Assembly: GCA_027262695.1 (NCBI GenBank)
Contig: GCA_027262695.1_4722.1
Length of the DNA: 64,000 bases
Source: a phage
Strand: one strand, 5' to 3'
The notes below the pieces were generated by a model. The model was not told where the DNA came from and searched no databases. It saw only the letters and a program-made list of their open reading frames with translations. Shown one piece after another: positions 11,628 through 62,546 of the stretch; positions within the stretch are counted from its first letter, which is position 1, and every line of letters starts with the position of its first letter. Both the position numbers and the translations under genes were made by a program.

Positions 11628-11677
11628 GGATAAAGTTCCTTGTTTTCACGTTGTTTGATTAACGTATTGATTTCTGA

Positions 11678-12070: not shown

Positions 12071-12073
12071 AAA

Positions 12074-12130
12074 CAATGGATAACATGTGTTTACTACGCT
12101 CGTTGAGTTATAACTCAACGGTAACACATG
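12074..12130. repeat. nested palindrome ACATGTGTT...CGTTGAGTTATAACTCAACG...AACACATGT
   Basis: Perfect 20-bp palindrome CGTTGAGTTA/TAACTCAACG flanked by 9-bp outer inverted repeat. Confidence 0.5.
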
Positions 12131-12536: not shown

Positions 12537-12566
12537 CCTCCTCCAACCCGGAAGGGAAGGAGGAGG
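12537..12566. terminator. hairpin CCTCCTCC-AA-CCC-GGAA-GGG-AA-GGAGGAGG (canonical family member)
   Basis: Read directly; immediately downstream of stop of 12585-13478. Confidence 0.55.
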
Positions 12567-14362: not shown

Positions 14363-14394
14363 CCCCTCCTCATCCGTTATTGGGTGGGGAGGGG
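14363..14394. terminator. hairpin CCCCTCCTCATCC / GGGTGGGGAGGGG
   Basis: 13-bp stem with two G-U pairs at convergent ends of 13621-14163 and 14458-15093. Confidence 0.45.
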
Positions 14395-14457: not shown

Positions 14458-15093
14458 TTATTCAGCACTGAAACCGTTCAAACGGATAGCTTCGTAACGT
14501 TTACGTTCACGACGTTTACGCGCCTGCCAACCGTAAATGAACTTCTCGTCTTTCTCACGACGTTCAGCTAATTCGATGTAATACATGCTCTGCATATCCA
14601 GCATCGCGTCGATAAGGTAATCTTTACCTTGCTCGCCACGTTTTGCGATATAAGCGTCCAACGCACCTAAGGTTTTAGGTCCCATCCCACCATCAGCGTC
14701 AATATCTTTCCAGTAAGTTTGACGGTTGTTCATGACGTTGAGGTAACGCTGGAGGTTCTTAACGGCAACGGATTTGCCTGCATTGATACCCAGATCAAAG
14801 AGACGGTCAGCTAAGAACACGGAACGCTTCATGACGTCATCAAGCTTCATCTTATCCCAGAAGTGGGTTTTGTAGATGAAGAACGCCATGTCGTAGGTCA
14901 GATTGCGCATATTACCATTCCAACCGAATTTCGTTTTCAGCGTGGTTTTGTATTGATCGGCGAGCGCTTTCGTAATTCCCATCATGGTTTCATTACCGCT
15001 GTCATCTGGGTCGTTGACGTATCCCGCCTCGATGTTGGTTTTATCACGAATGATGAATTCGCAGGTAAAATCTTTTTCAGTAATCTTGGTCAT
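14458..15093 (-). CDS. endolysin, GH108-type N-acetylmuramidase with C-terminal peptidoglycan-binding region
   Basis: N-terminal EAGYVNDPDDSGNETMMGIT matches GH108 signature EGGYxxDPxDxGGxTxxGIT. Confidence 0.7.
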   Translation of the reverse strand: MTKITEKDFTCEFIIRDKTNIEAGYVNDPDDSGNETMMGITKALADQYKTTLKTKFGWNGNMRNLTYDMAFFIYKTHFWDKMKLDDVMKRSVFLADRLFDLGINAGKSVAVKNLQRYLNVMNNRQTYWKDIDADGGMGPKTLGALDAYIAKRGEQGKDYLIDAMLDMQSMYYIELAERREKDEKFIYGWQARKRRERKRYEAIRLNGFSAE

Positions 15094-15195
15094 TAGAACT
15101 CCTCGTTTAGATAACGATTTAGAGGAACAGGAAGGCCCTAGAACGCGATAAACGATTTAAACCAGGCAAACCCTAGATTAAACTTTTCGAAGCGT

Positions 15196-15209
15196 TAGAA
15201 CGCGTTCTA
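15196..15209. promoter_or_regulatory. palindrome TAGAACGCGTTCTA upstream of endolysin, with additional CTAGAACGCG half-site at 15136-15145
   Basis: Read directly; located 100-130 bp upstream of the endolysin start. Confidence 0.35.
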
Positions 15210-15219
15210 GAGCGTGAAA

Positions 15220-23206: not shown

Positions 23207-24484
23207 ATGTATACATTGGTAAAAACTTACGGATTACCCGTAGGTTCCGGCACGGCCTGGACAGCACTTGAAGCGGGTGAAAGCGTCCTGAGCACGTTGT
23301 TCGCAACGTATCAAAAACTCAATATCCAGGTCCATGAAAGTTATACTGACCAGCAGCAGGTTATCGATCTTTATACGTTTCAATCCGAGCTTCAAAACAG
23401 CAGCGATACGCTTAATGCTTGGCTGAAGGCGAAGTCGGATGCCCACACCAACCTTCGTGGTCAACCGGGTGAACTCTCGATTAAAGCCCACAAGCTCTAT
23501 TGTCACGACGTTATCACGGTAGGCTTTCTTCCTAAAGTCGGTAATAGTGGATATCATCCAAGCAACGCGATTCCTGAATCGGAACGTACCGATATTCTCC
23601 TAACAAAAGCGAACACGAATTACGAGAACATCGGCAAGCACTGCTTGTTCACGGTAGGGGGTTACGTACACCCTCACGTTTACGGTAAGGATGTTGGTGT
23701 TTATATCCAGGGTGGATTCAAGACAGCCCAACGCAGCCAGGAAAACGATATCGGGATGATCGATTTCAGCTGTATCGGAAGTTTGGAGATTCATGCGATC
23801 ACAGAAGACATGATTGCGGATTCCACGAAGCTTTTACCGTACAAAGATGAGATGTATCTGCGCTTACCCCGTAAAGTCGCGGAAGATGAAACGGTCGCAT
23901 TAGTGTTCGGAGGTTACTTACATCTCCTCGATGACTGTTACACGATCGTTAGTGATACGACAGCAAAAATAAACTGCATTAACATGTTCTTGTACGAAAG
24001 GTATTTTCGTTCTCGTGAATATCTTGACTTAACCTCCCTCGGTATTCTCTTGGACGAAGAAAACCCACAATCGGATATTGTTGCGAACCGTTTGCTGTCC
24101 GATAAAGCCTTGAAAGCTTGGGTGACCCATCCATGCAGCTTTTGGGTTTATATCAAAGCAACCTCGATTCAAGTTACGCAAGAACCGCTACCGCGCAGTG
24201 GTGTGCCAGGACAGTATTTCTTAGGCAAGAAACCGGAAGGATTAATTCGCGCGGATCTTGGAGAACTACCTGCGTACGTACAGACTTACGAGAAACCACT
24301 GTGGGTACTTCATTCACGATGGGGACTTCGTAAGAACATGCTGTTTGAAAACACGTTATACAAACACACACGTGTTAAACGCCTCAATGATACACCGTAT
24401 CTCCATCAGGTATGGTTGGAAACGCATGCGACGTTACAAACCGTACACAAGCTGGAACTGATCGATTCCAGTCAGAAAAAATAA
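23207..24484 (+). CDS. hypothetical protein
   Basis: 425 aa ORF, divergent from tail-fibre operon. Confidence 0.55.
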   Translation: MYTLVKTYGLPVGSGTAWTALEAGESVLSTLFATYQKLNIQVHESYTDQQQVIDLYTFQSELQNSSDTLNAWLKAKSDAHTNLRGQPGELSIKAHKLYCHDVITVGFLPKVGNSGYHPSNAIPESERTDILLTKANTNYENIGKHCLFTVGGYVHPHVYGKDVGVYIQGGFKTAQRSQENDIGMIDFSCIGSLEIHAITEDMIADSTKLLPYKDEMYLRLPRKVAEDETVALVFGGYLHLLDDCYTIVSDTTAKINCINMFLYERYFRSREYLDLTSLGILLDEENPQSDIVANRLLSDKALKAWVTHPCSFWVYIKATSIQVTQEPLPRSGVPGQYFLGKKPEGLIRADLGELPAYVQTYEKPLWVLHSRWGLRKNMLFENTLYKHTRVKRLNDTPYLHQVWLETHATLQTVHKLELIDSSQKK

Positions 24485-24499
24485 ACACGGCAAACATAA

Positions 24500-24531
24500 C
24501 CCTCCTCCAACCCATCAGGGAAGGAGGAGGG
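24500..24531. terminator. hairpin CCCTCCTCC-AA-CCC-ATCA-GGG-AA-GGAGGAGGG
   Basis: Family member at convergent gene ends. Confidence 0.55.
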
Positions 24532-24540
24532 CATATGCCG

Positions 24541-25446
24541 TCAGGCTACGTATAACGTTAGATAACCTTCAATGAGGGTGTTCATTACACTGAGTTGGAG
24601 AACGACAGCTTTACTAACATCCGTACGCACCCCGAACGGTAGCGTTTTGAAGTGCTCTGGATCCGTAATAACTTTCGCGTTTTGTAGGTTAAGCGATCCT
24701 GGTATCGCTGACAATACCCAACGATCGTTAACCGTCAGACCAACGATCTCTTCAGAAAGTCCTAACTTCAGAGTGTTCATTTCTGCAATCAGGGCTTCTG
24801 AATGCGCATCGCCCGATGTTAACGTGTAACCATCGGTTAACGCCGTCAACACCGCATCCGATACGAACCAGTTGTACGATACGATCGCACCTGGTAGCTT
24901 ATCGCTATCCCGATCGATGATGTAGTTAAGACCAGCTAACATGTTGTTACGGATGAGGTTGTTCAGGTCGTTATGACCTGATGTCAACTCAACAAGCAGT
25001 TGACCGACCCAGACTTGGTTACCGGGTTTCGGTGTTATTACAACCTGTATCGGCTGTCGGGATTTGTCCAGATCAGCATCAACGATTTCGGTTTTATTCA
25101 GCAGGATACCGTACGTTGAGGCTAAGACAGGCAATACCTCAGAAACCTTGGTCAGTGTATCTAAGGTTTCGATTTCTATCGGCCAACGATGTTGCCCACC
25201 AGACCAAATACCGAGTTTGCTAAGATCGATACGGTTGTAATAGATGTCGACGGAGTTCACGAGCCCGGAACCCGGTTGTGGGTGCACGGTCAACATACTG
25301 TTGCGTTTGTATCCCGTGCTTTCAGAAGCCTCACCGATAACCAGCTTATCCAGCGTCACACCCCGAGCATCGAAATCGCTATGTTTTCGAATCAGTCGGA
25401 AGAGAATTTCCTTTGATTCTAGCCCCAGGATTTCACTGTACTCCAT
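24541..25446 (-). CDS. structural paralog family member
   Basis: 301 aa; YYNRIDLSKL and QVWVGQL motifs shared with 12585, 26363, 27225 genes. Confidence 0.55.
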   Translation of the reverse strand: MEYSEILGLESKEILFRLIRKHSDFDARGVTLDKLVIGEASESTGYKRNSMLTVHPQPGSGLVNSVDIYYNRIDLSKLGIWSGGQHRWPIEIETLDTLTKVSEVLPVLASTYGILLNKTEIVDADLDKSRQPIQVVITPKPGNQVWVGQLLVELTSGHNDLNNLIRNNMLAGLNYIIDRDSDKLPGAIVSYNWFVSDAVLTALTDGYTLTSGDAHSEALIAEMNTLKLGLSEEIVGLTVNDRWVLSAIPGSLNLQNAKVITDPEHFKTLPFGVRTDVSKAVVLQLSVMNTLIEGYLTLYVA

Positions 25447-27224: not shown

Positions 27225-28160
27225 TTAGCCTTGTTCTTTCGGGGAACGGCCCTGAAGGCTTGCGGTATGCCCGTCGACATTATAATAGAAAATCAACGGA
27301 CCGCCAACAGCAGTACAGTAGTTTTCATCCAGACTGATTTCGATGCCGTATTGGTAACCTGCGCGAGCCGGGATACGTTCGCCTAACTCACCGTTGAAAT
27401 CCACCTTCGCGTTATACAGGTTGTATGGCGCTGTGTTATCGGTTAATACCCAACGATCGGTGGTCATTTCAGCCAGAAGGTCAGCAACCATCACATCGCT
27501 AACAACGGTACCTGTTACCAGCGAAGCCAAAAGCTCACCGTACTCAGACGTATCGCGACTGTAACTGTAGATTTCACCGCTTGCACGTACACCCTGTCCA
27601 AAGAACTTAAGACCGTCCAGCTCTTTGATCGCGATGATATCATCAAGATTCGGTACACGCGATTTCATCAGGATACGAACGCTCCCCGTCCAAGCCAGGC
27701 AACTAGATACGACGCGAAGCAACTGTCCGTTAACGGTATCCCAGTTAAGTTCATCGTTGACGATTTCTTCAGCTGTAAGGCCAAGACCGAAACGTTCCTT
27801 GATGATAGGCCAGATATCACGCATCTTGGTGGCGTCTGGCGCATCAATAAGAATAGGCGCTACGTTACGCAGATACGCGCCGATATTAATACGATCGTAA
27901 TACAGCGTCGTCGAACCTTCATAATCGTCTAACTCAGTAAGCTTAGCGGTTGCCGTTGCCGTAATCTGGGTGTCGCGCTCGTAGGCGCTTTGGTTAGTGG
28001 TTGGTGTTCCTAAAACCAATAATTCAGGTGTCAGGACGTGTTCTCCGTTCTGAGGTGGGTTATCGTGGTTGATAAGACCGTACACGAGATCGGATGAAGG
28101 TAAAGAGACGTCAACCGGGTAAAGTTCGGTGCCGTCAGTAGTTGTTACCGTATCACTCAC
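27225..28160 (-). CDS. structural paralog family member
   Basis: 311 aa; LYYDRINIGAYL and CLAWTGSVRILM. Confidence 0.55.
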   Translation of the reverse strand: MSDTVTTTDGTELYPVDVSLPSSDLVYGLINHDNPPQNGEHVLTPELLVLGTPTTNQSAYERDTQITATATAKLTELDDYEGSTTLYYDRINIGAYLRNVAPILIDAPDATKMRDIWPIIKERFGLGLTAEEIVNDELNWDTVNGQLLRVVSSCLAWTGSVRILMKSRVPNLDDIIAIKELDGLKFFGQGVRASGEIYSYSRDTSEYGELLASLVTGTVVSDVMVADLLAEMTTDRWVLTDNTAPYNLYNAKVDFNGELGERIPARAGYQYGIEISLDENYCTAVGGPLIFYYNVDGHTASLQGRSPKEQG

Positions 28161-30658: not shown

Positions 30659-33577
30659 ATGAACGATATAAATAAAGGGCGCGTCGCCCTCGAACGTCAA
30701 ATGAGCAATAATGACGTTGCGAAGGCACTCATGAACAAATTTGTCGCTCCTGCTCCGCAGTCACGTCTTTATAACACACGTGAAGCGGAAGGAGCGAGCG
30801 GTCGTTTCGGGTTAGTTGTTCCCGACCAGATGACGATGAACACGGTGACGCGTGCGACCGCAACAAACGTCGAGGATAATAAAAACATCCTCGAGTTGTT
30901 CCCTGAACTTAAACGCGTGATGCAGATCTATGTTGCCGCGTTGACGAACCCTAACGATCTTAAGACGGTCGAGATGTTCATCGACAGCGAAGATTTCCCC
31001 GGCAGAGTCGCAGAAATCGTTCAGCCGATGATCGATACCATCGACACGCATTTTAAGAATATCTATAAAATAAAGACGCTTATCCCTCGTATCATCGAAG
31101 ATGTCTTCTTTATCAAGGGCAGCTATAACTTCGTTGTTCTGCCTGAAAGCACGCTCGATCGTGCTATTAACGGCAACGGCCAACTGAAACTCGAAGAATA
31201 CGGATTTAAAAACAATCATTTCGCCAGCTGGGGGCTGCTGGGGAATGACAGCCGTATACGCAGTCAACATCAGTTACCGACAACGGTTTCGATGGAAGAT
31301 TATTTTTCAGGCGTTAACGAAACCATCCCGTACGATCCGGTTGTCCGTATCGATAGCATCAAGTTTACCAACACGATGCTCCGTGATAAAGACGGTAAAT
31401 TCATTGAAGCGAAGGTCGATATTCCGGATATGGTTACGGTTGTTGATAACCCAGACATCCTTCGCATGCCGATTTTACACCAACGTCGTGCGTCAACAGC
31501 CGTGCAACGTGCATTACGTGCAAACACCTTAGGCGGTAACGGCCTGGTGACGTTATCAGGCGATCCGACGCAAACCGCGAATCGACGTGAGCTGACACAA
31601 GAGCAAGTTAATGAGATCTGGAATAAACTAAACATCCAACGTCATACCAAGGTATCGCCTGTGTACGCACTAGCAACCCCGGATACCCTTGACCGTCAAA
31701 GTGTCGGTCATCCTGGTGTGATGCACGTACCACCTGAGTCATTAGAACCGGTTCATGCGCCTGGCGATCCAGAGAACCATATCGGTTATCTCGTCCAGCT
31801 GGATGAATTCGGTTACCCAGTACGTTTGGTTGAAGATGCTGCGTATTACAAACAGCTGGAAGGTCGACTGTCGAAGATCACGGCGGATATTGCCGGTACA
31901 TCAAGCAACGGAATGGCGAGTGAGATGATCGGGGCAGCGAAGAACATGGTTCAAGGTACGTCGTGTAACCAAGTCGATATGTCAGCGTTTGTCTCGTCGT
32001 ACGAATCACTGATGCAACGTTATATCGTTGAACGTATCGTTAACGGTTACCTCGGCAGTGCGGTAGAAATCGGTGCAACGTCGTCGTTCTATCTGTCGAT
32101 GCTTGCCCGCAGTCTTGCTCACAAGCAAACCCGTGTTTTGTTTATTCCTCGTGAGATGGTGACATACATCGCCTACGAATACAACAAATACGGGATTGGA
32201 CGTTCCTTGCTTGAAAGTACGAAGATGATCTCTTCGCAACGCGCGATGCTCATGGTTCAGGAACTGATGGCGAAAATCAAAAGTTCGTTGAACTATACGA
32301 CGCTGAGCGTGATGCTCGAAGACACCGATAGAAACCCGGTTGATACCGTTGAGCAGGCATTGCACAGTTTTGCTCGTGTTTATCAATCTGGTTTCCCGTT
32401 GGGTGAAACCAACCCAATGGATATCATCAATGCATACGAACGAAGCTCGATTCGATTGAAGGTTGAAGGGAACAACCCACGCTTCCCGAAACTGAACACC
32501 GACGTTAGCGTTGAACAACGTAACTACCAATCCCCGGATGATGAGCTGATGGATCGTTACCGTCGTGATCATTTCATGGGTCTGGGTGTTTCTCCAGAGA
32601 TCGTTGATACGTCCTATCAATCTGAATTCGCGGCGTCGGTGATTACGGCTAACGCGATGCAAGAGAAACAGTTCACGGTTTGTCGTGAGGTCGTCACGAA
32701 TGGCTTAACTGATCACATCAAGAAGTATACGGCTTACAGTCCTGTGCTTCTGACGTCGTTACGCAATACCGTTCGCGCGAATATGTCAAAGCTCTCTCAA
32801 GCGCAGCTGCAACAGCTCTTTGGTAGCGACTTCGAAAACGGTGTTATTCGTAACGTGAACGCGTATCAGGAGATTGATGATCGATCGGTGACAATGGATC
32901 TGGATTACACCAAACCGGAAGTCCAGGAAGTGATTGCCGACGCTTATGTCTCCATGTTCTTAAACAGCTTGCAGGTACGTTTACCGGATAGCAACGCGCG
33001 TCGCCTTGAAGATCAGGTACGTGAATATAATCAGTACAAGGAAGCGATTACAGCACAACTTGATGATTATTTAACACCGGATTATGTCATGGGTCTGGGT
33101 GGGGTCGATGAAACAACCCTGCAGATGATTCGAGCGTGCATCATTGGTACGGCGATGAGGACATGGGCGAAAGAAAACAACTTCAATCAGGAGCTGGCTG
33201 ATCTCTTTAGTCTCGACGATAAGAAGAATGCCGTCCAGGATTGGAAACGTGCATCCATGGAGCATATTGAAATCATGGGTAAATGCATGGGTGATTTCGC
33301 ACTCTATATCCAAAACCTGACGAAGCAAATCGAAGAGAAGATGGGCGACCAAGCACAAGACGGTAGCGTTTCATCTGACGGCTCATGGTCATCGGATTCC
33401 GGTTCGGATAGCGGTTCTTCCGATGATTTCGGTGGTGGTGATGACTTTGGTGGCGACGACGATTTCGGAATGGAAGAAACCGAAGAATCCACCGAGGAAA
33501 CCACTACGGAAGAAACAACCGATGAAACTGGTGATAATGCCGCATCAGAAGACGATACCGCAGGTGATATTGTCTAA
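30659..33577 (+). CDS. portal-like protein with acidic low-complexity C-terminal tail (call from size and context only)
   Basis: 972 aa; AGGAG RBS 9 nt upstream; C-terminal DDFGGGDDFGGDDDFGMEETEESTEE. Confidence 0.35.
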   Translation: MNDINKGRVALERQMSNNDVAKALMNKFVAPAPQSRLYNTREAEGASGRFGLVVPDQMTMNTVTRATATNVEDNKNILELFPELKRVMQIYVAALTNPNDLKTVEMFIDSEDFPGRVAEIVQPMIDTIDTHFKNIYKIKTLIPRIIEDVFFIKGSYNFVVLPESTLDRAINGNGQLKLEEYGFKNNHFASWGLLGNDSRIRSQHQLPTTVSMEDYFSGVNETIPYDPVVRIDSIKFTNTMLRDKDGKFIEAKVDIPDMVTVVDNPDILRMPILHQRRASTAVQRALRANTLGGNGLVTLSGDPTQTANRRELTQEQVNEIWNKLNIQRHTKVSPVYALATPDTLDRQSVGHPGVMHVPPESLEPVHAPGDPENHIGYLVQLDEFGYPVRLVEDAAYYKQLEGRLSKITADIAGTSSNGMASEMIGAAKNMVQGTSCNQVDMSAFVSSYESLMQRYIVERIVNGYLGSAVEIGATSSFYLSMLARSLAHKQTRVLFIPREMVTYIAYEYNKYGIGRSLLESTKMISSQRAMLMVQELMAKIKSSLNYTTLSVMLEDTDRNPVDTVEQALHSFARVYQSGFPLGETNPMDIINAYERSSIRLKVEGNNPRFPKLNTDVSVEQRNYQSPDDELMDRYRRDHFMGLGVSPEIVDTSYQSEFAASVITANAMQEKQFTVCREVVTNGLTDHIKKYTAYSPVLLTSLRNTVRANMSKLSQAQLQQLFGSDFENGVIRNVNAYQEIDDRSVTMDLDYTKPEVQEVIADAYVSMFLNSLQVRLPDSNARRLEDQVREYNQYKEAITAQLDDYLTPDYVMGLGGVDETTLQMIRACIIGTAMRTWAKENNFNQELADLFSLDDKKNAVQDWKRASMEHIEIMGKCMGDFALYIQNLTKQIEEKMGDQAQDGSVSSDGSWSSDSGSDSGSSDDFGGGDDFGGDDDFGMEETEESTEETTTEETTDETGDNAASEDDTAGDIV

Positions 33578-33611
33578 CCGTTCGTAAAAAAAAAAAATAA
33601 CACATAGTTAA

Positions 33612-33645
33612 CCTTCTCCCCAACCCGGAAGGGAAGGGGAGAAGG
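33612..33645. terminator. hairpin CCTTCTCCCC-AA-CCC-GGAA-GGG-AA-GGGGAGAAGG, preceded by A11 run
   Basis: Same core as canonical copy with compensatory stem changes; A-run at 33586-33596. Confidence 0.55.
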
Positions 33646-33662
33646 GCTATGCGCTATTTAAC

Positions 33663-33938
33663 TTATCTCGAGTTTAACCACGATTCAATTGTGGTGAGGT
33701 TGCTTCGCAATACGCGCCAACTAGGGTGTGGTGGGATCACAGCACCTTTGTCGATTACGGTTAGCTGAGCCTGGTACTTCTGTTTCATACGGGCTACCGT
33801 AGCGCTTACCGAAAGGAAAAGCTGGTAACGTTCGTACACCGTCAGTTCATCTTCCCGTCGAACTGCTCCTGTTGCTAACGTAATTTCGCGTAAGTCCTTT
33901 GCGTCCATCGGGACAGTAATGAGTTTATAATGACTCAT
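33663..33938 (-). CDS. hypothetical small protein
   Basis: 91 aa ORF. Confidence 0.4.
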   Translation of the reverse strand: MSHYKLITVPMDAKDLREITLATGAVRREDELTVYERYQLFLSVSATVARMKQKYQAQLTVIDKGAVIPPHPSWRVLRSNLTTIESWLNSR

Positions 33939-39833: not shown

Positions 39834-40045
39834 TGATTATCCTCCCTCAAACAGACAACATACATGCATAATGCACGTCCCTTTTCTTGTTATCATCACA
39901 ACGACAGTCGACGGTTTCAGCATCATTCTTAGCGCGAGAACGACCTTACGTGTTGTCTATGCCTTTTTTCATTGAAGGCTTCTGTCACCTAGGTAATGTA
40001 AGCGTCAAATTTTTTCTAATCTAACCCAGCATAACAGCATAATAA

Positions 40046-40074
40046 CCTCCCTCAGCCCGTAAGGACCGAGGGAG
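40046..40074. terminator. hairpin CCTCCCTC...GAGGGAGG downstream of putative capsid gene
   Basis: 8-bp outer stem with inner CCGTAAGG. Confidence 0.45.
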
Positions 40075-40174
40075 GTTGACTTATGTATCACGGTGCCGGA
40101 TGAATGTCCGGTGTAATGAAACCATCCGCAACGTTGTTTTCAAGAACTTCATCCAACGAAGCAGCTCCGGTATT

Positions 40175-42397
40175 TCAGTTAGTCTGAACCGGCAGCTTGA
40201 TGTTTTCAGTGTAGACCTTACGCAGGTTCACAACGTTGATCAGACCCAGCAGCGGGCAGTTGTTCACGAAACGGCAGCGCGGCTGAACCATGGTTTCTTT
40301 AGAAACCTGACCGTTACGAGTAACCTGAGCAACGGATACCAGTTCCGGTACGTACAGGAACATACCGAAGGTCAGCGGATCCGGAGAACCCTGGATACCA
40401 CGAGACAGGGTCACGAAGATCTTGTCGCGCAACATGACGTTCGGGTTGTCTACAACCACGAAGTTGAAGCTTACACCCACGGTGCGGAAGTCACCGTCGG
40501 TCTGCAGGAACTGCGGGATGTAGTTGTCGGTTGCTACTACGCAACGCGGTTTCTCATCAGCGTTGGAAGACAGCAGCTGCAGAGCTGGCTGATAACCAGA
40601 CTCGGAGTACATGCGGTACGCCATTTCACGAATCACGTTCATGATCGCAGCGGATACTTCAGCACGACGTTCTGCAGTGGTGGTACCCTGAACGGATTTC
40701 TCCAGGTCCAGATCGATTTCTTCGAACCACGGACGAATCAGGTAACGACCGAAACCTTCGATCTGAATGTCACCGAACTGACGGAAGCGAGAAGTTGCAA
40801 CCGCTTTCAGGGCGTCTTTGTAGCTGAACAGTTTCTCAACCATCAGGTTGTCGAAACGTGCGTTAGCTGCTTGGATCAGAACATCCAGGTCAGCAGCGTT
40901 TTCTTCCCAATCCAGCGGACGAGGAATGGAGAACGGAGCCAGCAGGCCGATTGCGTAACGTTCTTGCTTCATGTTGAAGTCAAGATGTTTACCGCGTTCA
41001 CGACGGTTGCTGTTGTTACGACGGATACGCAGTTCGTAACCCACCAGTTTGAAGCTCAGGTCTTCAGCCAGATCTTTGAATTCCTGGCTCTTACGCGGTT
41101 GTTCGATGTTGTCCTGGTCAACCAGACGATACAGTTCAGCGGTAGCGCCATTAACACGCAGACCCGCTTTCTCTACGTTGGAAGAACCGTAAACTTCGAT
41201 CGCCAGCTGAGCAGCAGATTTCGCATCGATGATGTCCTGCAGCGCTTCAGCTTTCGCACCTTTAACGTCAACGGTGTTCTCATCAACGAAGATGGAGTGG
41301 GTGTCGAACGCCAGGGTCATTTTGCGGAAGTCGCCTTCCAGGGATTTCTGGAAACCGTTGGTGATCAGACCGGATACGTCGAACGGAACGTAAGAGGTTT
41401 TGCTGTGCTTGGTGGATTTAATTTCCACCAGGATTTTGGTCAGCGTGATCTGAGCATCCAGCGCGTCAGTGTTGTCGCTGTAACCGTTAGCCAGAATGCT
41501 ATCGTCTTCAGCGATACCGATCATGTCGATCAGTTTATCAACCGCCAGGTAAGACGTTTTGTAAGTAACGCCTTTGATTTCGATGTCGCGCGGAGCAACG
41601 ATGGTTTTATCAACGAAGTACTGCGCGTTAGCATCGTCAGCACGGTAGATCGGATGCAGATCGGTCACGTCGTTGGACAGAACGTCGTTGTACATGAACG
41701 CATCCAGCAGCGGACGACGTACCCAATCAGCCGGAGTACCATCACCGTTACGACGCAGGTGGTTGAACACCAGCGGACGACGGAAGGAAACGTCATAACC
41801 GATCTGGTTCGGAGCCAGAACGATGGTGTTGTACAGTTCGTTACCCATGCGGCTCAGACGAGACGCCTTCACGTTGAACACAACGGAGTACGGCATCATG
41901 TCACGCAGTTCTTTCTGGTCGTAGGACAGCTGAACCAGTTCTTCAGATTCACAACCGCAGGAATCCGCAGCCATCATGACGAAGTTAGCGCTGTCAACAT
42001 CACGGCCGGACGGCGAGGTGCTGATGTTCATGGAACGTGCTTGTTTAGCATATTCCACCGGGTTGCCATGTGCCAGCATGATCAGCGCTGCAGCGCGAGC
42101 CTGCTGTGCGTTCATGGTGAACAGCTGTTCTTCAATACGTTGCTTCTCTTCCGGAGTTGTGGTTTCGAAGCCCAGCATGGACAGAACCGGTTCTTCAGCT
42201 TTACGGATGTCGCTGCTGAAGCTCTTAACATCCATTTCGTTAACCAGTTTGTCCATGGATTTGAAATCAACCTTAGAAGCAGATTCCATAGACAGGAAGG
42301 TGTTTTCCAGACCTTTGTCTGCTGGTTTGCTACCATTAGCGGTCAGGAACTGGCGAGTGGCCGCGACCTGTTGGCTAAGAAGGGTTTTATCATTCAT
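40175..42397 (-). CDS. putative major capsid protein (large HK97-fold type, by size and codon usage)
   Basis: 740 aa; strongest host-optimal codon bias in window, producing a 774-codon stop-free antisense ORF; AAGGA RBS. Confidence 0.45.
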   Translation of the reverse strand: MNDKTLLSQQVAATRQFLTANGSKPADKGLENTFLSMESASKVDFKSMDKLVNEMDVKSFSSDIRKAEEPVLSMLGFETTTPEEKQRIEEQLFTMNAQQARAAALIMLAHGNPVEYAKQARSMNISTSPSGRDVDSANFVMMAADSCGCESEELVQLSYDQKELRDMMPYSVVFNVKASRLSRMGNELYNTIVLAPNQIGYDVSFRRPLVFNHLRRNGDGTPADWVRRPLLDAFMYNDVLSNDVTDLHPIYRADDANAQYFVDKTIVAPRDIEIKGVTYKTSYLAVDKLIDMIGIAEDDSILANGYSDNTDALDAQITLTKILVEIKSTKHSKTSYVPFDVSGLITNGFQKSLEGDFRKMTLAFDTHSIFVDENTVDVKGAKAEALQDIIDAKSAAQLAIEVYGSSNVEKAGLRVNGATAELYRLVDQDNIEQPRKSQEFKDLAEDLSFKLVGYELRIRRNNSNRRERGKHLDFNMKQERYAIGLLAPFSIPRPLDWEENAADLDVLIQAANARFDNLMVEKLFSYKDALKAVATSRFRQFGDIQIEGFGRYLIRPWFEEIDLDLEKSVQGTTTAERRAEVSAAIMNVIREMAYRMYSESGYQPALQLLSSNADEKPRCVVATDNYIPQFLQTDGDFRTVGVSFNFVVVDNPNVMLRDKIFVTLSRGIQGSPDPLTFGMFLYVPELVSVAQVTRNGQVSKETMVQPRCRFVNNCPLLGLINVVNLRKVYTENIKLPVQTN

Positions 42398-42546
42398 TGA
42401 AAGTATCCTTTACAGATTTAACTTATATAAGTCGGTCGATAGACCATAGCGTACACGCGTGCATGCGCCACTATAGTATCAGTAAACACTTACCGTTATT
42501 GAGGTTGTGATACAACACTAAAAATGCCGCATAACTTTTCCCTACG
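42398..42546 (-). promoter_or_regulatory. upstream region of putative capsid gene with TTATATAAGT motif
   Basis: Minus-strand TTATATAAGT about 25 nt upstream of start; late-promoter-like by analogy only. Confidence 0.25.
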
Positions 42547-43167
42547 TCACAAACGACGCAGGCGATAATGGATGGAACGATTGGTGCAATATGAACGGAA
42601 CAGCGGTAATTGCGCAACTTCCGCAAGACTCATATTAATTCGCAGATGTTCGATAACCGCGCTGTAGTTATCGGCGATACGATCGCTCAGTAACTCTTCT
42701 GCCAATAAAGGAAGACAATCGACAACGATGGCGATCACATCCTCATTAACATAACGCACCCGAACATTGAGTGGACGTTTGTCTGGGCCGTAAGTTGGAT
42801 CCGCCAAACGACGTTCAATATCGCGTGGATAGCTCGTCAGTAAATGGTAATAACCATTGTCATAACGATTGATGTACTCACACAGCACATCAACATTCTT
42901 CTCTGGCGGCAAACCTGTTTCGTCATAGTGATACGCAAACATACCACCAAGCAGGTTGTTAAGATGAACAGCCGCATTCGTTTGTTCGTGTTCTTTCGTA
43001 ATGAAGAAAGGCACGTTCTGAGCTGCGAAATAAAAACCTACATCATTGGGCGATAGTATGCCGAAAAGACTTTTAGGATCCAACAGCACCTGTAAGTCAT
43101 CACGCGCATTTCGCATAATCGCGTGTTCTACCCAATTCGGAACGACGAGATATCGGAGTTCCTTCAT
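42547..43167 (-). CDS. hypothetical protein
   Basis: 206 aa ORF divergent from 43207 gene. Confidence 0.5.
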   Translation of the reverse strand: MKELRYLVVPNWVEHAIMRNARDDLQVLLDPKSLFGILSPNDVGFYFAAQNVPFFITKEHEQTNAAVHLNNLLGGMFAYHYDETGLPPEKNVDVLCEYINRYDNGYYHLLTSYPRDIERRLADPTYGPDKRPLNVRVRYVNEDVIAIVVDCLPLLAEELLSDRIADNYSAVIEHLRINMSLAEVAQLPLFRSYCTNRSIHYRLRRL

Positions 43168-43206
43168 TATGATTACCTCTTTGTAAGTATCGAAAGGATT
43201 GAGTCG

Positions 43207-44817
43207 ATGGACCCAAAACAGATAGCCATTAAGATTATTACGTTACTGTTTCGTAATGCACAATTGAACCATCCCGATCCCAGTACGATCGAACATGTTA
43301 AATCCGTCTTAGATAAAATCGAACCCCCGAAAAACCATCTCACCGTTGATGTGGATAGAGAGGTTTTCAACAACCTGATGAACACCATTCATTGGATGTT
43401 GGAACAACCGTTATCGGAACCTTTCGATAAACAACAGTTGCTACAAAGGATACGTTTAGATTGCCTGGAACAAAGCCACGTTTACGAAATTCTCGCCGAC
43501 GGATTGTACGATATCGAAGACGATGCTCATATCAGTAAGGTCTGTTCGCTTTACTACAATGAATTACGTAATCTGATTACCCGTCGTCGTGTATTTGAAA
43601 CCTTTAAAAACACGTACATGGATATCAGTAACGGCCGCCTTGGGGACAAAGAATTTTTCGACGCGATGGCGAATTTGAAACTATCGCTAGATACCATCGA
43701 AATGGATACTGAAAACCCCGAAGAAATGTCCTGTATGATTGACGGCTTCATCGCTGATAGTGAAGACGATATTGAAAAAGTCGAACGTATGTTCGTTAAG
43801 GCGATGGAGCGTAACAGTCCTGAAGGGGGATTTGTCACCGGCTGGCAGGGGTTTAATAAAATGTTGGGGTCGGTCGGCGTATTACGTCGTGGTACTCTAG
43901 GATTGATTGGTGCGATGCAACACCGTAATAAATCAGGGGTGTTATTAAAACTTTTCACCCACCTGGCGTTGTACAATAAACCCCATTTCTTTTTTCCGGA
44001 GCGCGCAAAGAAAGCCTTATTGATTCATCTCTCAACAGAGAACGAAGTTGAAGAAAACACGCTTCAAATCTACAAGAACATGCGAGAACAGGAAACAGGT
44101 GAATATGTCGATATTCGTAAGATTGACCCACGTGAAGCTTCACGCTATGTACTGAACGTTTTCAATAATGCGGGGTTCTCTGTCTGCATGCGTCGTGTTG
44201 ATGGAATGAGCTATAAACAACTTGCTAACCTTATCGACCATTTTGAACGTATGGGTTATGAAGTTATGGCTTTGTTCATCGACTATCTAAAAATGTTCTC
44301 GTCAGAAGGATTAGATAGGAATGGGCCTACGGGCGCTTGGCTGCAAGAACTCTTCAACAAAGTACGTAACCTCTGTAGCGTTAAACGTATTTTAGGTATG
44401 ACCGTACACCAGTTGTCTTCTGATGCGAAGATGCGGGCACGTGATGGTAACGATGAAGAATTTGTTGACCAAGTCGCCGGTTTAAGTTACTGGGATGGAT
44501 GTAAAGGGATTGACCGTGAGATTGACCTTGAGGTAATTGTTGATATCGTTAAGGAACCTGGCAAACGTCAAAGCTGGCAGGTCTTTGCGCTAGGGAAAGA
44601 CCGTCAACCGGATAACGGCTCAACAAAACCTGAAGATAAACATTTTGCGATGCCGTTCCAAACCATCGGGATGCTTCCTGACGATTACGGTAAGAAAGCG
44701 GTGTATTGCCGCAAGGTTGGCGGACAACCGGTCTCTGAAGGAGGCAAAGGTCCGTGGAACAAGTTTGATGAACATGCCGCACCGAGTAATGAACTACAAT
44801 TTGATTTAGAATTCTAA
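43207..44817 (+). CDS. hypothetical protein with degenerate P-loop-like segment
   Basis: Start moved to ATG 43207 (AAGGA 9 nt upstream); ORF track start 43123 is GTG and overlaps the divergent gene. Confidence 0.5.
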   Translation: MDPKQIAIKIITLLFRNAQLNHPDPSTIEHVKSVLDKIEPPKNHLTVDVDREVFNNLMNTIHWMLEQPLSEPFDKQQLLQRIRLDCLEQSHVYEILADGLYDIEDDAHISKVCSLYYNELRNLITRRRVFETFKNTYMDISNGRLGDKEFFDAMANLKLSLDTIEMDTENPEEMSCMIDGFIADSEDDIEKVERMFVKAMERNSPEGGFVTGWQGFNKMLGSVGVLRRGTLGLIGAMQHRNKSGVLLKLFTHLALYNKPHFFFPERAKKALLIHLSTENEVEENTLQIYKNMREQETGEYVDIRKIDPREASRYVLNVFNNAGFSVCMRRVDGMSYKQLANLIDHFERMGYEVMALFIDYLKMFSSEGLDRNGPTGAWLQELFNKVRNLCSVKRILGMTVHQLSSDAKMRARDGNDEEFVDQVAGLSYWDGCKGIDREIDLEVIVDIVKEPGKRQSWQVFALGKDRQPDNGSTKPEDKHFAMPFQTIGMLPDDYGKKAVYCRKVGGQPVSEGGKGPWNKFDEHAAPSNELQFDLEF

Positions 44818-44843
44818 AACGCAAAAAAAAAAATCGTACGGTT

Positions 44844-44874
44844 CCCTCCTCCAACCCGGAAGGGAAGGAGGAGG
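44844..44874. terminator. hairpin CCCTCCTCC-AA-CCC-GGAA-GGG-AA-GGAGGAGGG, preceded by A11 run
   Basis: Canonical copy; A-run 44823-44833 gives a U-run after the hairpin for minus-strand transcripts. Confidence 0.6.
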
Positions 44875-44892
44875 GTTATGACCGTTATGGTG

Positions 44893-45219
44893 TTAACTTA
44901 TCGTCATGAATTCCGTAGGTGAGAATTTCCAACCGTTTTCATTGAGAAGCGTGTTAAGTTTCGCTGCAACGATAAGCCATGCGTGCATGGCTGTCACATC
45001 GTATTGGCGATTAACACGGCGTTGGTTTTCGATATCGATTTGCTCCCGTTCGGTGATGTTTGGGTAGAGCGCGACGGCGCTGGGCTTCCCTAACGCATCA
45101 CTCATTACCGCCTGACATTCACTGATGATGTTATTGAGATGATAATTGTAAACCGTTCCACGCATAACACGATGACGGCATTCAATAATAGCGTCGTAAA
45201 TAATTTCTCTTGTTGTCAT
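44893..45219 (-). CDS. hypothetical protein
   Basis: 108 aa ORF. Confidence 0.45.
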   Translation of the reverse strand: MTTREIIYDAIIECRHRVMRGTVYNYHLNNIISECQAVMSDALGKPSAVALYPNITEREQIDIENQRRVNRQYDVTAMHAWLIVAAKLNTLLNENGWKFSPTEFMTIS

Positions 45220-45225
45220 GATCGA

Positions 45226-45627
45226 TTAAAACACACGTTCGTTTTTAGCACGGGCATCCATAACCAAATCGTAGATACCAGCTGTTCGTAAACATTCTTC
45301 GTAATAACGGTGCGTACCTTCCTCCGCCATCCACGATAACCCACGACTATCGGCAACAATAACCAGTTTGTTATTGTTGAATGCGCATACCACACGGTAA
45401 GTCGCATTGTTGTTTGGATCACGTGTAATCAGTTCGTAAACACCATTAACCGGTTTACTGAATTCACCGTTCAGCGGAATAAGTTCCGTTGTACCTTCAG
45501 CAAACGTTACATTGATTGATGCTGGCTCTTTAGCAATGACGGTGTATTCCACGTTGTGTTCTTTACTGGTCATGATACCGAAATAAGAACTTACTGGAGA
45601 ACGTGGTACACTAAGAATATTAAACAT
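45226..45627 (-). CDS. hypothetical protein
   Basis: 133 aa ORF. Confidence 0.45.
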   Translation of the reverse strand: MFNILSVPRSPVSSYFGIMTSKEHNVEYTVIAKEPASINVTFAEGTTELIPLNGEFSKPVNGVYELITRDPNNNATYRVVCAFNNNKLVIVADSRGLSWMAEEGTHRYYEECLRTAGIYDLVMDARAKNERVF

Positions 45628-45690
45628 GAATGTTGTCCTCTTAATTGGATATAGATTGTTGGTATGTATTTGAATAAGGTTGGTTTACTT

Positions 45691-46260
45691 TTAGACGATG
45701 AGCGTCCAGGTGGTCAGTACACCGCTTGCGAATTCAAGCTTAAGACGTTTACCAATAAGCTGTTGTTGGATCATCTTTTCCGTGATCCGACGATCGTGTT
45801 GAACGGCTTTATCGAATGCCTCTTTTGCTTCGGCTTGATAAAAGTTCGTTTCTTCGTTCTCGTCGATATCTTCGAATGCATCATCGTCGATATCAGCAAG
45901 TTTTACACGGCCGTTTTCATCGGGTTGTTCGGCCGGTTCGTTGTCGTAAGGCGTGTCTTTTGTCGGTGCGACACGGTGCTGTAGTTCAACCTGGGTTAGC
46001 ATCACTTCCATCTCACCGTCGATAGGGATGATGTCATCAGCACTACCGTTTTCGGTTAGCTCTCGACTTTCCAGTAACGTCGTAGTAACAGTGAACACCT
46101 CCTCGACAGGAACCTCATCATCGTCGATGGTGTTAACCGTATCGCTGGTCACTTCGGCAACAACCATCAAATCGAATGCGTGAGGGTCGCCGGGCATTTT
46201 GATCCCAGGAAGTTTGTTGAGATACCAAGGATCAAGAATCATGATTTCGGGATTAAACAT
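45691..46260 (-). CDS. hypothetical strongly acidic protein
   Basis: 189 aa, D/E-rich (DDDEVPVEE, DIDDDAFEDIDENEE). Confidence 0.5.
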   Translation of the reverse strand: MFNPEIMILDPWYLNKLPGIKMPGDPHAFDLMVVAEVTSDTVNTIDDDEVPVEEVFTVTTTLLESRELTENGSADDIIPIDGEMEVMLTQVELQHRVAPTKDTPYDNEPAEQPDENGRVKLADIDDDAFEDIDENEETNFYQAEAKEAFDKAVQHDRRITEKMIQQQLIGKRLKLEFASGVLTTWTLIV

Positions 46261-46335
46261 CGTATTTACCTTTTTATGTTAGGTGGGTTGCGGATAGAAG
46301 AATCAATGCATAGTCTGATTTAAGTTTGTTAAGAC

Positions 46336-48055: not shown

Positions 48056-48460
48056 CTAGTCTATCTTAAGCCAGATTGATGGTAAATGGAAATAGACACC
48101 GTCGTCTATTTGTTTTTGTGTTAACGGGGTTGGAAGTTTAGTGATGATGTTGTCGATCGATTCCTCAATGTCACTTGTTAGAACGTCGATGTGGTAATAG
48201 CGAGCGATGCGTCCGTTACGTTCTAGCCAAAACAGACGAACGAAATCACTATTTTTATTAATCGCATTCATAAACACGATTTGATGAAGCAGGATCATTC
48301 TTGACGAGGGGTAATCGTCAGGACGCGGAGTCATCACCAGTTCCCAACGTTTCCGTCGCACGCCTTTTTTGAATTGACTCGTTACATTTGAACCACTTTT
48401 ACCTAAGTTTATAACAAATTGCTTTAGACGATACGGTGTATTTCTGTAAATATCGGTCAT
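48056..48460 (-). CDS. hypothetical protein, possibly truncated relative of the 46336/47255 family
   Basis: 134 aa; C-terminal DDGVYFHLPSIWLKID resembles family N-terminal region. Confidence 0.4.
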   Translation of the reverse strand: MTDIYRNTPYRLKQFVINLGKSGSNVTSQFKKGVRRKRWELVMTPRPDDYPSSRMILLHQIVFMNAINKNSDFVRLFWLERNGRIARYYHIDVLTSDIEESIDNIITKLPTPLTQKQIDDGVYFHLPSIWLKID

Positions 48461-48544
48461 TGATTATAGCTCCAGGTTATTATCACTAAGGTAATATAGT
48501 CGTGAAATAAACTGGAGTAATAGAAATAATAAGACGGCATAAGA

Positions 48545-48575
48545 CCCTCTCCCAACCCGTAAGGGAAGGGAGAGG
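48545..48575. terminator. hairpin CCCTCTCCC-AA-CCC-GTAA-GGG-AA-GGGAGAGG
   Basis: Family member with GTAA tetraloop and compensatory stem variant. Confidence 0.55.
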
Positions 48576-48580
48576 AAGTA

Positions 48581-49948
48581 TTAAACGGTTGGACGAACGG
48601 TGTTGTCTTTTTCCGGTGCAAGCCAGAGTGTGACGGTACCGTGGCAGGTCCATTGGGGTTCACGTACAGAAGAACCCGCCATCGTAACAGCGCAATCGGT
48701 ACGCATAACAACGCCGTAAGCTTCGCAAAGGTTATTGTCTTGCATCCAAACAACTTTAGCAGGCATGCCAGGATACAGTAAATCCATGTTGGCATGTTCC
48801 CATACCAACTGCATCGTTCGACCGCGTAACCCAGCAGTATTACTTAATTCCCGCCAACGGTTATCCGTTACCCGGCCCATCCCTTTTGCTACCTTCACGT
48901 TATCACTACGTTCTTCCGTCACATACTCGCTTACGTTCACGGTACGACTGATGATCGTATCACCGCCCTTCGATAACGTCATTCCCTGGCTCATCTGACT
49001 CGCTGAAACAAAGCGTCCACCCGCATTACCTAACAATGAAGCTGCGTTGCTGATATCGCTGACCGACGCACCTCGTGTACACGCGATCTCCACGTATTTG
49101 TCACGATTGATCCAGGTATTTTCCATGCCGGGAAACATATCGGCCGGATAATTGTAAAAAATCGCCGTACGTCGACCGTCGGAGAAACGGGTTTCGTCAT
49201 ACAGAGGGTAGATATACAAATACGGTGATTGGTAATAGCAACCAACGTCCGCTGAATAAATACCGACCTGGTTCTGGATCTTATCAACAAGATCCATCGC
49301 GTTGGTACCATGAGGAAGAATCAATAACTTGAACAAATCATTGTTATTCGGTGCGACAATATCAACACCCTGCATTTTGAAGCCGGTATCCGCTTCAACA
49401 GCAGAAAGGATTTTACTGAATTCGAGTCGCAGTACATCCAGAACTTTCGATCCAGTATAGTTCTCACCGGTTTCTGACTGCATGAAGCTTTCAAGAACAG
49501 GATCGAACAACTGGAATTGAAGATCGACCATCTGCTCGTAATCTTTCTTCGCAGAATCGGTTGCAGTACGTTCATCGGTTGCGGACATACGACTGTCTAC
49601 GGTGGTTAAACAAACTGCCCGATAGACATAAGCTTGTGCGGCATCGTCTACGGTTTGGCGTTGTCCACGCATCAGACTGTACGCCTGCACGATGACGCGC
49701 ATTTTAAGTTGTTGCTGGTACGGTAAAATGTATTTTCCGTAACTGCCCGGAGGGAACTTTACAGAGATATAAAGTTCATCTCCTGCGTTACGTTCATAGT
49801 CTCGATACGTGTGGACTTGAGTCACTAAAGGAACAGACACCGTCATTGACGGCGTGATTAATTCCGCGGTGACTTTATACGCAACAGCAACTGCTTCCTG
49901 CGCAAATGTACCGATATACCGTCCTAACGGCGTCTGTTTGTAATCCAT
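48581..49948 (-). CDS. hypothetical structural protein
   Basis: 455 aa; first gene of a tightly coupled minus-strand block. Confidence 0.5.
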   Translation of the reverse strand: MDYKQTPLGRYIGTFAQEAVAVAYKVTAELITPSMTVSVPLVTQVHTYRDYERNAGDELYISVKFPPGSYGKYILPYQQQLKMRVIVQAYSLMRGQRQTVDDAAQAYVYRAVCLTTVDSRMSATDERTATDSAKKDYEQMVDLQFQLFDPVLESFMQSETGENYTGSKVLDVLRLEFSKILSAVEADTGFKMQGVDIVAPNNNDLFKLLILPHGTNAMDLVDKIQNQVGIYSADVGCYYQSPYLYIYPLYDETRFSDGRRTAIFYNYPADMFPGMENTWINRDKYVEIACTRGASVSDISNAASLLGNAGGRFVSASQMSQGMTLSKGGDTIISRTVNVSEYVTEERSDNVKVAKGMGRVTDNRWRELSNTAGLRGRTMQLVWEHANMDLLYPGMPAKVVWMQDNNLCEAYGVVMRTDCAVTMAGSSVREPQWTCHGTVTLWLAPEKDNTVRPTV

Positions 49949-59782: not shown

Positions 59783-59814
59783 CCCTCCTCCAACCCATTA
59801 GGGAAGGAGGAGGG
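59783..59814. terminator. hairpin CCCTCCTCC-AA-CCC-ATTA-GGG-AA-GGAGGAGGG
   Basis: Family member between same-strand genes. Confidence 0.55.
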
Positions 59815-62492: not shown

Positions 62493-62523
62493 CCCTCTCC
62501 CTTCCCTGACGGGTTGGGAGAGG
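62493..62523. terminator. hairpin family member in inverted orientation (CCCTCTCCC-TT-CCC-TGAC-GGG-TTG-GGAGAGGG)
   Basis: Reverse complement gives the AA-CCC-loop-GGG-AA core. Confidence 0.5.
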
Positions 62524-62546
62524 GAATATGTCAGTTTGCTAACTGA

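Follow-up and report, generated by a model that had tools for sequence, protein, structure and literature searches.

Two short intergenic elements, at 44823–44885 and 33586–33659 of a 64,000-nt stretch of phage DNA (the window; GenBank assembly GCA_027262695.1), have the layout of compact bidirectional transcription terminators between convergent genes of a Goslar-like, nucleus-forming jumbo phage. We give this reading a probability of roughly 0.8. Each element combines a long A-run with a stable hairpin of a single recurrent family. That transcripts end here, and which of the phage's two RNA polymerases would respond, is inferred; the anatomy of the elements, their RNA stability, covariation, conservation and recurrence are observed. 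The element type is most likely one already known, the conserved terminator of the Chimalliviridae used in both directions, here with a classical U-tract on one side.

The window is approximately 92% identical to Escherichia phage vB_EcoM_Goslar (92% over positions 40000–46313), a 237-kb nucleus-forming jumbo phage of E. coli. The Goslar record annotates split RNA polymerase (RNAP) beta subunits, the nuclear shell protein and PhuZ, and its RNA polymerase subunits are phiKZ-like. By this identity and these annotations, the window belongs to a phiKZ-like phage carrying both virion and non-virion multisubunit RNA polymerases. Gene identities were assigned by synteny with the Goslar RefSeq record (Table 1); the Goslar portal, gp36, is identified as such in a cryo-EM preprint. 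Approximately 80% of the genes lie on the minus strand, which is the main coding strand. The portal and helicase genes, both on the plus strand and both ending in TAA (33575–33577 and 44815–44817, respectively), each face a small minus-strand gene, and the two elements therefore fill gaps of 70–90 nt between opposing stop codons. The gp037 homologue that faces the portal gene is the last gene of a minus-strand run that includes the major head protein gene, and the gp044 homologue is convergent with the helicase gene, its stop codon lying 7 nt from the hairpin base. The real start of the helicase gene may lie downstream of the first GTG. A 774-aa plus-strand ORF (40076–42400) was considered as a third long plus-strand gene and rejected, as it runs antisense to the annotated major head protein gene.

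Table 1. Coordinates of the terminator elements, related hairpins and flanking genes in the window.
Feature	Position	Strand	Basis or context
A11 run	44823–44833	+	Reads as U11 in minus-strand RNA; proposed U-tract for the minus direction
Full two-tier terminator hairpin (predicted)	44838–44885	both	Folding, covariation
TATG within TTATGACCGT	44877–44880	+	Putative phiKZ-type tail for the plus direction
A12 run	33586–33597	+	Reads as U12 in minus-strand RNA
Sister terminator hairpin including outer helix (predicted)	33595–33659	both	Folding
Family hairpin copy	12536–12566	+	After minus-strand gene 12585–13478; no long run
Family hairpin copy	24500–24531	+	Convergent gap between 23207–24484 (+) and 24541–25446 (−)
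Family hairpin copy	48545–48576	+	Between tandem minus-strand genes; minus-side tail TCTTATGCCGT
Family hairpin copy	59783–59814	+	Between tandem minus-strand genes; minus-side tail TTTTATG
Family hairpin copy	62493–62524	−	Between tandem minus-strand genes; core inverted relative to the Goslar orthologue
Pyrimidine/purine-arm hairpin, different core	5651–5684	both	Convergent gap
Pyrimidine/purine-arm hairpin, different core	14363–14394	both	Convergent gap
Pyrimidine/purine-arm hairpin	40046–40075	both	Directly downstream of the major head protein gene; tail TTATTATGCTGT
DnaB-like replicative helicase gene (Goslar gp043 homologue)	43123–44817	+	ORF list, synteny with the annotated Goslar gene
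Goslar gp044 homologue (108 aa)	44893–45219	−	Goslar synteny
Portal protein gene (Goslar gp036 homologue)	30659–33577	+	Goslar synteny
Goslar gp037 homologue (91 aa)	33663–33938	−	Goslar synteny
Major head protein gene	40175–42397	−	Goslar synteny

In the gap behind the helicase gene, five bases separate the stop codon from the A11 run, which is followed by a 10-nt spacer (TCGTACGGTT, 44834–44843) and by a plus-strand hairpin at 44844–44875 that reads CCCTCCTCC-AACCCGGAAGGGAA-GGAGGAGGG, then TTATGACCGT. The arms (44844–44852 with 44867–44875) enclose the 14-nt core AACCCGGAAGGGAA (44853–44866), which is made up of a 2x2 A.A internal loop, a CCC/GGG inner stem and a GGAA loop. Beyond the arms, 44838–44843 faces 44880–44885 in an outer helix of only five pairs. 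In the minus-strand RNA this helix is formed by ACGGU and ACCGU (within 44838–44885) and leaves four nucleotides, ACGA, before U11. Goslar has GCGGU/ACCGC here, so that the A-U pair of the window (44838/44885) becomes G-C, a compensatory change; in two other relatives this pair is an A/C mismatch. The plus-side tail reads GGG-TTATG-ACCGT (44876–44885). The hairpin folds at −31.2 and −30.4 kcal/mol on the two strands, a stability equalled by none of 200 shuffles.

The sister element behind the portal gene repeats this arrangement. Its A12 run is followed after 14 nt by a plus-strand hairpin at 33612–33646 that reads CCTTCTCCCC-AACCCGGAAGGGAA-GGGGAGAAGG(G), then CTATGCGCT, with arms pairing 33612–33621 to 33636–33645 around the core at 33622–33635. 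In the minus-strand RNA an outer helix (AAAUAGCGCAUAG/CUAUGUGUUAUUU, plus-strand coordinates 33595–33659) directly meets the U-run with a gap of 0 nt. On the plus side, TATG at 33648–33651 lies in a tail that reads GGG-C-TATG-CGCT (33647–33655). The hairpin folds at −32.0 and −36.1 kcal/mol on the two strands; values for this element reach −36 to −40 kcal/mol (z −6.9), the minus-strand RNA with its outer helix folding at approximately −40 kcal/mol.

The order of stop codon, A-run, spacer and family hairpin behind the plus-strand genes ending at 33577 and 44817 is thus as the original prediction had it, with spacers of 14 and 10 nt. It gave both runs as A11, which holds at 44823–44833; the second is A12, its end coordinate having been placed one base short. 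The stem-to-U-run spacer that it regarded as longer than in canonical intrinsic terminators proves to be mostly the 3′ strand of the outer helix, which leaves a real gap of 4 nt at the 44844 site and none at the 33612 site. Once this outer helix is recognised, the earlier interpretation is essentially right, and taken as a whole it is partly supported.

Both the runs and the hairpins stand out from the surrounding sequence. The only A or T runs of at least 8 nt in the 64-kb window are these two, and a stable hairpin in a convergent gap follows each of them after 10–14 nt. Under a first-order Markov model 0.2 runs of at least 11 nt are expected, and two were reached in 3 of 200 simulations. Two such runs are accordingly unlikely to have arisen by chance, the more so since both adjoin members of one hairpin family. 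Folding of both strands places the 44844 and 33612 hairpins at −30 to −36 kcal/mol, with z scores of −4.4 to −6.9 and no equal among 200 shuffles, so that the stable GC-rich hairpin of an intrinsic terminator (−30 to −40 kcal/mol across the two sites) is present at both. A simple consensus scan for terminators and promoters across 30–49 kb flagged neither site and returned counts no higher than in shuffled sequence; its stem and loop limits exclude two-tier hairpins, and it therefore says little here. An Rfam scan of the whole window at gathering thresholds returned no family, and a tRNA/tmRNA scan found none.

The two hairpins belong to a family defined by the core AACCC-N4-GGGAA between a pyrimidine 5′ arm and a complementary purine 3′ arm. 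The core motif occurs seven times in the window (0.4 expected) and 15 times in Goslar; the window copies start at 12536, 24500, 33612, 44844, 48545 and 59783 on the plus strand and at 62493 on the minus strand. More broadly, the window contains 10 perfect pyrimidine-arm/purine-arm (Y/R) hairpins where shuffles give 0.14, and Goslar contains 34. Such a hairpin is present at all five convergent junctions in the window and at all those examined in Goslar, and the non-convergent ones lie just after minus-strand genes. The Goslar record annotates some copies as "putative transcriptional terminator", among them 27746–27777 and 93445–93476; the orthologue of the 24500–24531 copy is one of those so annotated. 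The orthologues of the 33612 and 44844 sites carry no terminator annotation in that record.

Base pairing of the family hairpin is under selection. Among 15 distinct family sequences, 98.9% of stem cells are paired, and compensatory C-G/U-A double changes occur at six of the nine outer pairs, a result matched by none of 500 shuffles and with far lower values in slid controls. In every arm variant the 5′ side remains pyrimidine and the 3′ side purine. Because arms that run from pyrimidine to purine read alike on both strands, the hairpin would form in transcripts from either strand. An H-DNA or triplex role for the purine and pyrimidine arms was also considered and was dropped, since the arms form an inverted repeat rather than a mirror repeat.

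What usually comes next after a family hairpin is a short tail, (T)TATG-YYGT. TATG occurs within 10 nt of the hairpin in 50 of 88 tails, compared with 2% of random 10-mers, and many tails are exactly TATGCCGT or TATGCTGT. Between tandem minus-strand genes TATG lies on the minus, transcribed side of the hairpin, and convergent junctions usually have it to either side, as at the 24500–24531 copy, whose upstream run is only A6. Small ORFs starting at TATG, with the purine arm serving as a Shine–Dalgarno sequence, were examined as another explanation of the tail and rejected, those that could be compared showing no conservation: the 39-aa ORF at 33649–33768 falls within the conserved gp037 homologue in antisense orientation, and in Goslar a 2-nt indel shifts the frame of a 14-aa ORF at 44878. 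The phiKZ tail is moreover TATK, and so not always ATG (PMC10914365).

The closest experimentally mapped counterparts come from phiKZ and 201phi2-1. In phiKZ, 133 terminators were mapped by ONT-cappable-seq (Putzeys et al. 2024, PMC10914365), and most of the intrinsic ones share the motif 5′-BCCYCCCCHWWDGGGRRGGBYTTATKYYGT-3′, a hairpin with a Y-arm and an R-arm that leads into a TTAT region. Overlapping bidirectional terminators occupy six regions between convergent genes (PMC10914365). The 201phi2-1 map includes 59 terminators with a motif (motif A) described as strongly phiKZ-like (Poppeliers et al. 2024, PMC11512511); 15 transcription termination sites were classed as bidirectional, and eight terminators proved functional in vivo (PMC11512511). 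The elements described here share with this Chimalliviridae motif a C/T-rich 5′ arm and a G/A-rich 3′ arm (CCCTCCTCC/GGAGGAGGG and CCTTCTCCCC/GGGGAGAAGG), a (T)TATG tail often followed by YYGT (for example TATGCCGT and TATGCTGT), an intergenic position after stop codons and at convergent genes, and a phage with two split multisubunit RNA polymerases. The BY-TTAT-K-YY-GT tail is found on the plus sides, with one extra base relative to the phiKZ motif at the 44844 site; the minus side of that site has no TATG, and the U-run occupies its place.

The differences lie in the architecture of the hairpin. The arms in the Goslar clade are longer (9–10 bp), and whereas a simple 4-nt loop closes the Y/R stem in phiKZ, the Goslar clade inserts AA-CCC-N4-GGG-AA between the arms, so that an inner CCC/GGG stem sits behind a 2x2 A.A (or U.U) internal loop. 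A U11–U12 tract is also added on the minus side at both sites and replaces TATG at the 44844 site. Given the shared arms, tail and placement on one side, and the longer arms and inner stem on the other, the Goslar-clade hairpins are probably a structural variant of the Chimalliviridae terminator motif.

A second comparison is with canonical bidirectional intrinsic terminators (Ju et al. 2019, cited in PMC10204088; phage LUZ7 T50, PMC10204088). The features shared with these are a GC-rich hairpin placed in a convergent gap, a one-sided A-run that is the U-tract of the opposite strand, and compact spacing to both stop codons. The canonical pattern, however, is an A-tract and a U-tract flanking one hairpin, and here the plus strand lacks the matching U-tract: the plus-strand RNA has only U-rich TATG tails at both sites. 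The element is therefore asymmetric relative to canonical bidirectional terminators, with a TATG-type tail instead of a U-tract in the plus direction, and it may work like them with a different tail on one side. In the minus direction, folding gives the classical anatomy of hairpin plus U-tract. Textbook terminators have 0–2 nt between stem and U-run; the 33612 site, at 0 nt, matches exactly, and the gap at the 44844 site is longer, with 4 nt in the window and 6 nt in its Goslar orthologue. The responding polymerases are presumably the phage's own rather than sigma70 RNAP.

The runs themselves were followed into Goslar and other relatives. All eight Goslar runs of at least 9 nt are A on the plus strand (one is duplicated at the record ends), and every Goslar A-run of at least 8 nt is a minus-strand T-run that begins 0–6 nt past a stable hairpin where a minus-strand gene ends. 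These sites are at 36823, 48086, 108101 (with 108114), 146584, 200204 and the end of gp001, and the A8 at 86147 is arranged alike. No plus-strand gene is near the run at 108101, which is flanked by tandem minus-strand genes, and at the gp187/gp001 junction the run is located after, not before, the hairpin of the plus-strand gene. Only the reading of the runs as U-tracts for minus-strand transcripts fits all Goslar runs. An A16/17 at both ends of the Goslar record prompted us to consider a genome-end or packaging role for the A-runs, which was rejected; the two ends share approximately 55 bp, so that this is an assembly overlap cut within a homopolymer.

At the 44823 site the run is A11, A9, A10 and A8 in four genomes and uninterrupted in all of them. 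At the 33586 site it is A12 in the window, A9 in Goslar and T7 in IMG/VR contig 3300011560, again uninterrupted; the comparison at this site covers these three genomes, as a protein-seeded scan of the fourth relative, contig 3300045988, did not return it. Spacer bases beside the runs diverge among the relatives while the runs stay intact. Run length drifts between 7 and 12 nt, so part of the length may reflect neutral slippage. All five runs at convergent junctions serve the minus side, and among strict Y/R hairpins 4 of 18 at convergent junctions have a run, versus 0 of 15 in tandem contexts. The directional bias of the runs is statistically marginal, and since approximately 80% of the genes lie on the minus strand, we largely discount the genome-wide strand bias of the runs as evidence.

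An IMG/VR scan extends the pattern to other viruses. The core CCCC-AA-CCC-GAAA-GGG-AA-GGGG occurs in at least 25 unrelated viral contigs, where an A-rich run always adjoins the core on the motif strand and thus forms a U-tract on the other strand; in two of these contigs the core lies just downstream of a major head protein operon. These contigs follow the same orientation rule as the 44823 and 33586 sites. The comparative evidence taken together (the Goslar runs, their conservation and the hairpin class mapped in phiKZ and 201phi2-1) fits both the terminator reading and the proposal, made in the original prediction, that the A-run would act as a U-tract for minus-strand transcription. That prediction left open whether the elements are optimised for the minus direction or act in both; given the phiKZ-type TATG tail on the plus side, the bidirectional option appears to hold and the minus-only option does not.

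Together, these features suggest how the elements might operate. A polymerase leaving the helicase or portal gene would transcribe the hairpin and stop at the TATG-type tail, as mapped in phiKZ. A polymerase arriving on the minus strand would transcribe the extended hairpin and, 0–4 nt later, U11–U12, where the weak rU:dA hybrid would let the hairpin release the transcript. The 33612 site would in this way end the minus-strand run of genes to which the major head protein gene belongs, and both elements would halt minus-strand transcription before it could cross the portal and helicase genes in antisense. The published Goslar time-course RNA-seq gives per-gene counts only (bioRxiv 10.1101/2023.09.20.558163).

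TATG also has a second known role, and the tails could on that account be promoters. In phiKZ the late promoter is 5′-TATG-3′, whose G is position +1; promoter activity in vitro depends on this motif (Yakunina et al. 2015, PMC4666361; structure PMC12809450), and the beta-like subunit of the non-virion RNAP binds the non-template TATG at promoters (PMC4666361, PMC12809450). The TATG after each hairpin would then be a late promoter or start of the non-virion RNAP, and the hairpin–TATG module would end one transcript and start the next. The tails resemble that promoter in that TATG lies 1–6 nt after the hairpin and often upstream of the next gene, always so in tandem contexts, and TATG is 28-fold enriched right after hairpins. 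They differ from it in being tied to gene-end hairpins, in pointing outward on both sides at convergent gaps, and in that TATG can belong to the outer helix. Convergent gaps have no downstream gene in the direction of TATG, and at both of our sites TATG faces the 3′ end of the opposing gene. Promoters so placed would fire antisense RNAs with the U-run at their 5′ end. At the 33612 site, moreover, the two TATGs base-pair with each other inside the outer helix, and the minus side of the 44844 site lacks the motif; in phiKZ the hairpin-plus-TTATK motif came from mapped 3′ ends rather than 5′ ends (PMC10914365), and TATG alone is insufficient as a promoter (PMC4666361). We therefore consider this explanation unlikely for the two sites, although it could coexist with termination and may hold in tandem contexts.

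Two further explanations concern the run rather than the tail. The A-run could act in the plus-strand mRNA as an encoded 3′ UTR A-tract of the portal and helicase messages just past the stop codon, where it might strengthen plus-strand termination, bind proteins involved in stability or export from the phage nucleus, or stall read-through ribosomes. Five Goslar runs do start 0–10 nt after a plus-strand stop codon, and an A-tract upstream of a hairpin is a recognised feature of bidirectional terminators. However, there is no plus-side U-tract with which the A-tract could pair, and the Goslar runs at 108101 and at gp187/gp001 fit the minus-strand order of hairpin and then U-run instead. Nor is the layout general: the three other plus-strand genes in the window that face a minus-strand gene (ends 5628, 14163 and 24484) have the hairpin with A6 or no run, so that three of five convergent plus-strand genes lack a long run. 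A function in the plus-strand message is thus very improbable. Least credible of all is a DNA-level dispersed palindromic repeat (REP- or MITE-like, or a recombination, replication or packaging site) with no role in transcription, the homopolymer being a by-product of slippage. Its 14-nt core is near-identical in the 15 Goslar copies and inverted between orthologous sites, as exchange or recombination would produce, and run length varies between relatives. Against this, every copy is placed directly behind a stop codon, at all convergent junctions and behind many minus-strand genes, and none falls inside a gene; the tail motif follows the direction of transcription; arm changes are compensatory, as expected for RNA or hairpin function; the hairpin class is an experimentally mapped terminator in relatives (PMC10914365, PMC11512511); and the runs stay uninterrupted though neighbouring bases diverge.

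The preferred reading, bidirectional termination, can also be joined to a more specific proposal, which we hold to be quite doubtful. Most family copies lack a U-tract, and the hairpin with its TATG might address the phage polymerase specifically. In this scheme the non-virion RNAP, through its beta-like subunit, would re-recognise TATG past the hairpin, pause and terminate without a U-tract. The rare copies with a long U-run would be universal full stops, also halting the virion polymerase or the host RNAP, and would be sited where a busy minus-strand operon would otherwise meet an isolated plus-strand gene head-on. The hairpin–TATG unit might in addition double as a restart site for the next gene.

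If the two elements are bidirectional terminators, the Goslar clade would join the nucleus-forming jumbo phages whose genomes are punctuated by one conserved terminator hairpin, a signal that would be read by shared non-canonical RNA polymerases across host genera. The elements would also supply compact terminator parts, probably bidirectional and expected to function in E. coli. The A-run beside the hairpin would be an ordinary U-tract viewed from the other strand and opens no new question on its own. Of mild interest are the restriction of the U-tract to the side facing the main direction of transcription and the flipping of the 14-nt core.

At four orthologous sites among four genomes of approximately 90% identity, the 14-nt core appears in opposite orientations between arms and flanks that stay unchanged. 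The flip at 44844 is in contig 3300045988, as are those at Goslar 4151 and 174269; at 62493, the window and contig 3300011560 differ from Goslar and contig 3300045988. The pattern points to inversion or gene conversion among the copies as a frequent event, acting across the self-complementary arms. Either orientation of the core apparently works, consistent with a two-way signal.

At four orthologous sites across four genomes that are ~90% identical, the 14-nt core (AACCC-N4-GGGAA) of the family hairpin, a putative terminator with a pyrimidine 5′ arm and a purine 3′ arm, is flipped while the arms and flanks around it are the same. This inversion of the core between unchanged arms and flanks at four sites suggests either recurrent inversion or gene conversion between putative terminator copies, in both cases across the self-complementary arms.

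Sites in the core-inversion comparison and example loci of the two-tier core (L-numbers are loci from IMG/VR viral contigs)
Feature	Source	Coordinates
Core inversion	Window	44853-44866
Core inversion	Window	62503-62516
Core inversion	Goslar	4151-4178
Core inversion	Goslar	174269-174296
Core inversion	L034	8896-8930
Core inversion	L024	7885-7918
Core inversion	L048	6878-6911
Core inversion	L012	9533-9560
Core inversion	L032	6129-6156
Two-tier core	L051	3084-3105
Two-tier core	L029	10646-10667

The two-tier core (CCCC-AA-CCC-GAAA-GGG-AA-GGGG), in which an inner CCC/GGG stem sits behind an internal loop, is carried by over 25 unrelated contigs from IMG/VR (loci within L007-L057), and in every one of them it is adjoined by an A-rich run that forms a U-tract on the opposite strand. 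This core appears to be a widely reused putative terminator design. In L051 and L029, it lies immediately downstream of a major head protein/head-tail adaptor gene block.

For all pyrimidine-arm/purine-arm hairpins of the window (n = 10) and of the Escherichia jumbo phage Goslar (n = 34), 88 tails were compared, and 50 of them have the tetranucleotide TATG in the 10 nt that follow the hairpin; the background is 2%. Between tandem genes TATG is found on the transcribed side only, and it is the same as the phiKZ late-promoter/start motif. This placement and match raise the idea that hairpin and TATG together might act as terminator-promoter punctuation, or that TATG might induce pausing.

The window is depleted of A/T runs of 8-10 nt: a first-order Markov model predicts ~5 runs of at least 8 nt; none of 8-10 nt is observed, and only two longer runs (11 and 12 nt) are present. 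Homopolymers seem to be avoided throughout, except at the A11 and A12 putative terminators. The Goslar RefSeq record repeats ~55 bp at both ends (1-56 and 237244-237307; a hairpin, TTATGCCGTCAAGC and A16/17), which looks like an assembly overlap cut within a homopolymer and not a biological terminus.

A family hairpin (12536-12566) ends a stretch of ~900 nt (window 11628-12535; Goslar 14972-15825) where the Goslar annotation places no gene. This part of the window holds no ORF of at least 100 aa, no tRNA and no Rfam match, and could contain small genes or non-coding RNA. Elsewhere, a 774-aa plus-strand open frame (40076-42400) was rejected as a gene: the major head protein gene occupies the minus strand here (40175..42397), and the frame, exactly antisense to it, is a long shadow ORF. 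In Goslar, the annotated start of gp047 (49584-49772) is the ATG of a putative terminator's TATG tail, and its window counterpart (minus-strand ORF 48457..48795) differs from it in length; the gp145 CDS (134413-134640) crosses a hairpin (134585-134615). Both small genes are probably annotation artefacts.
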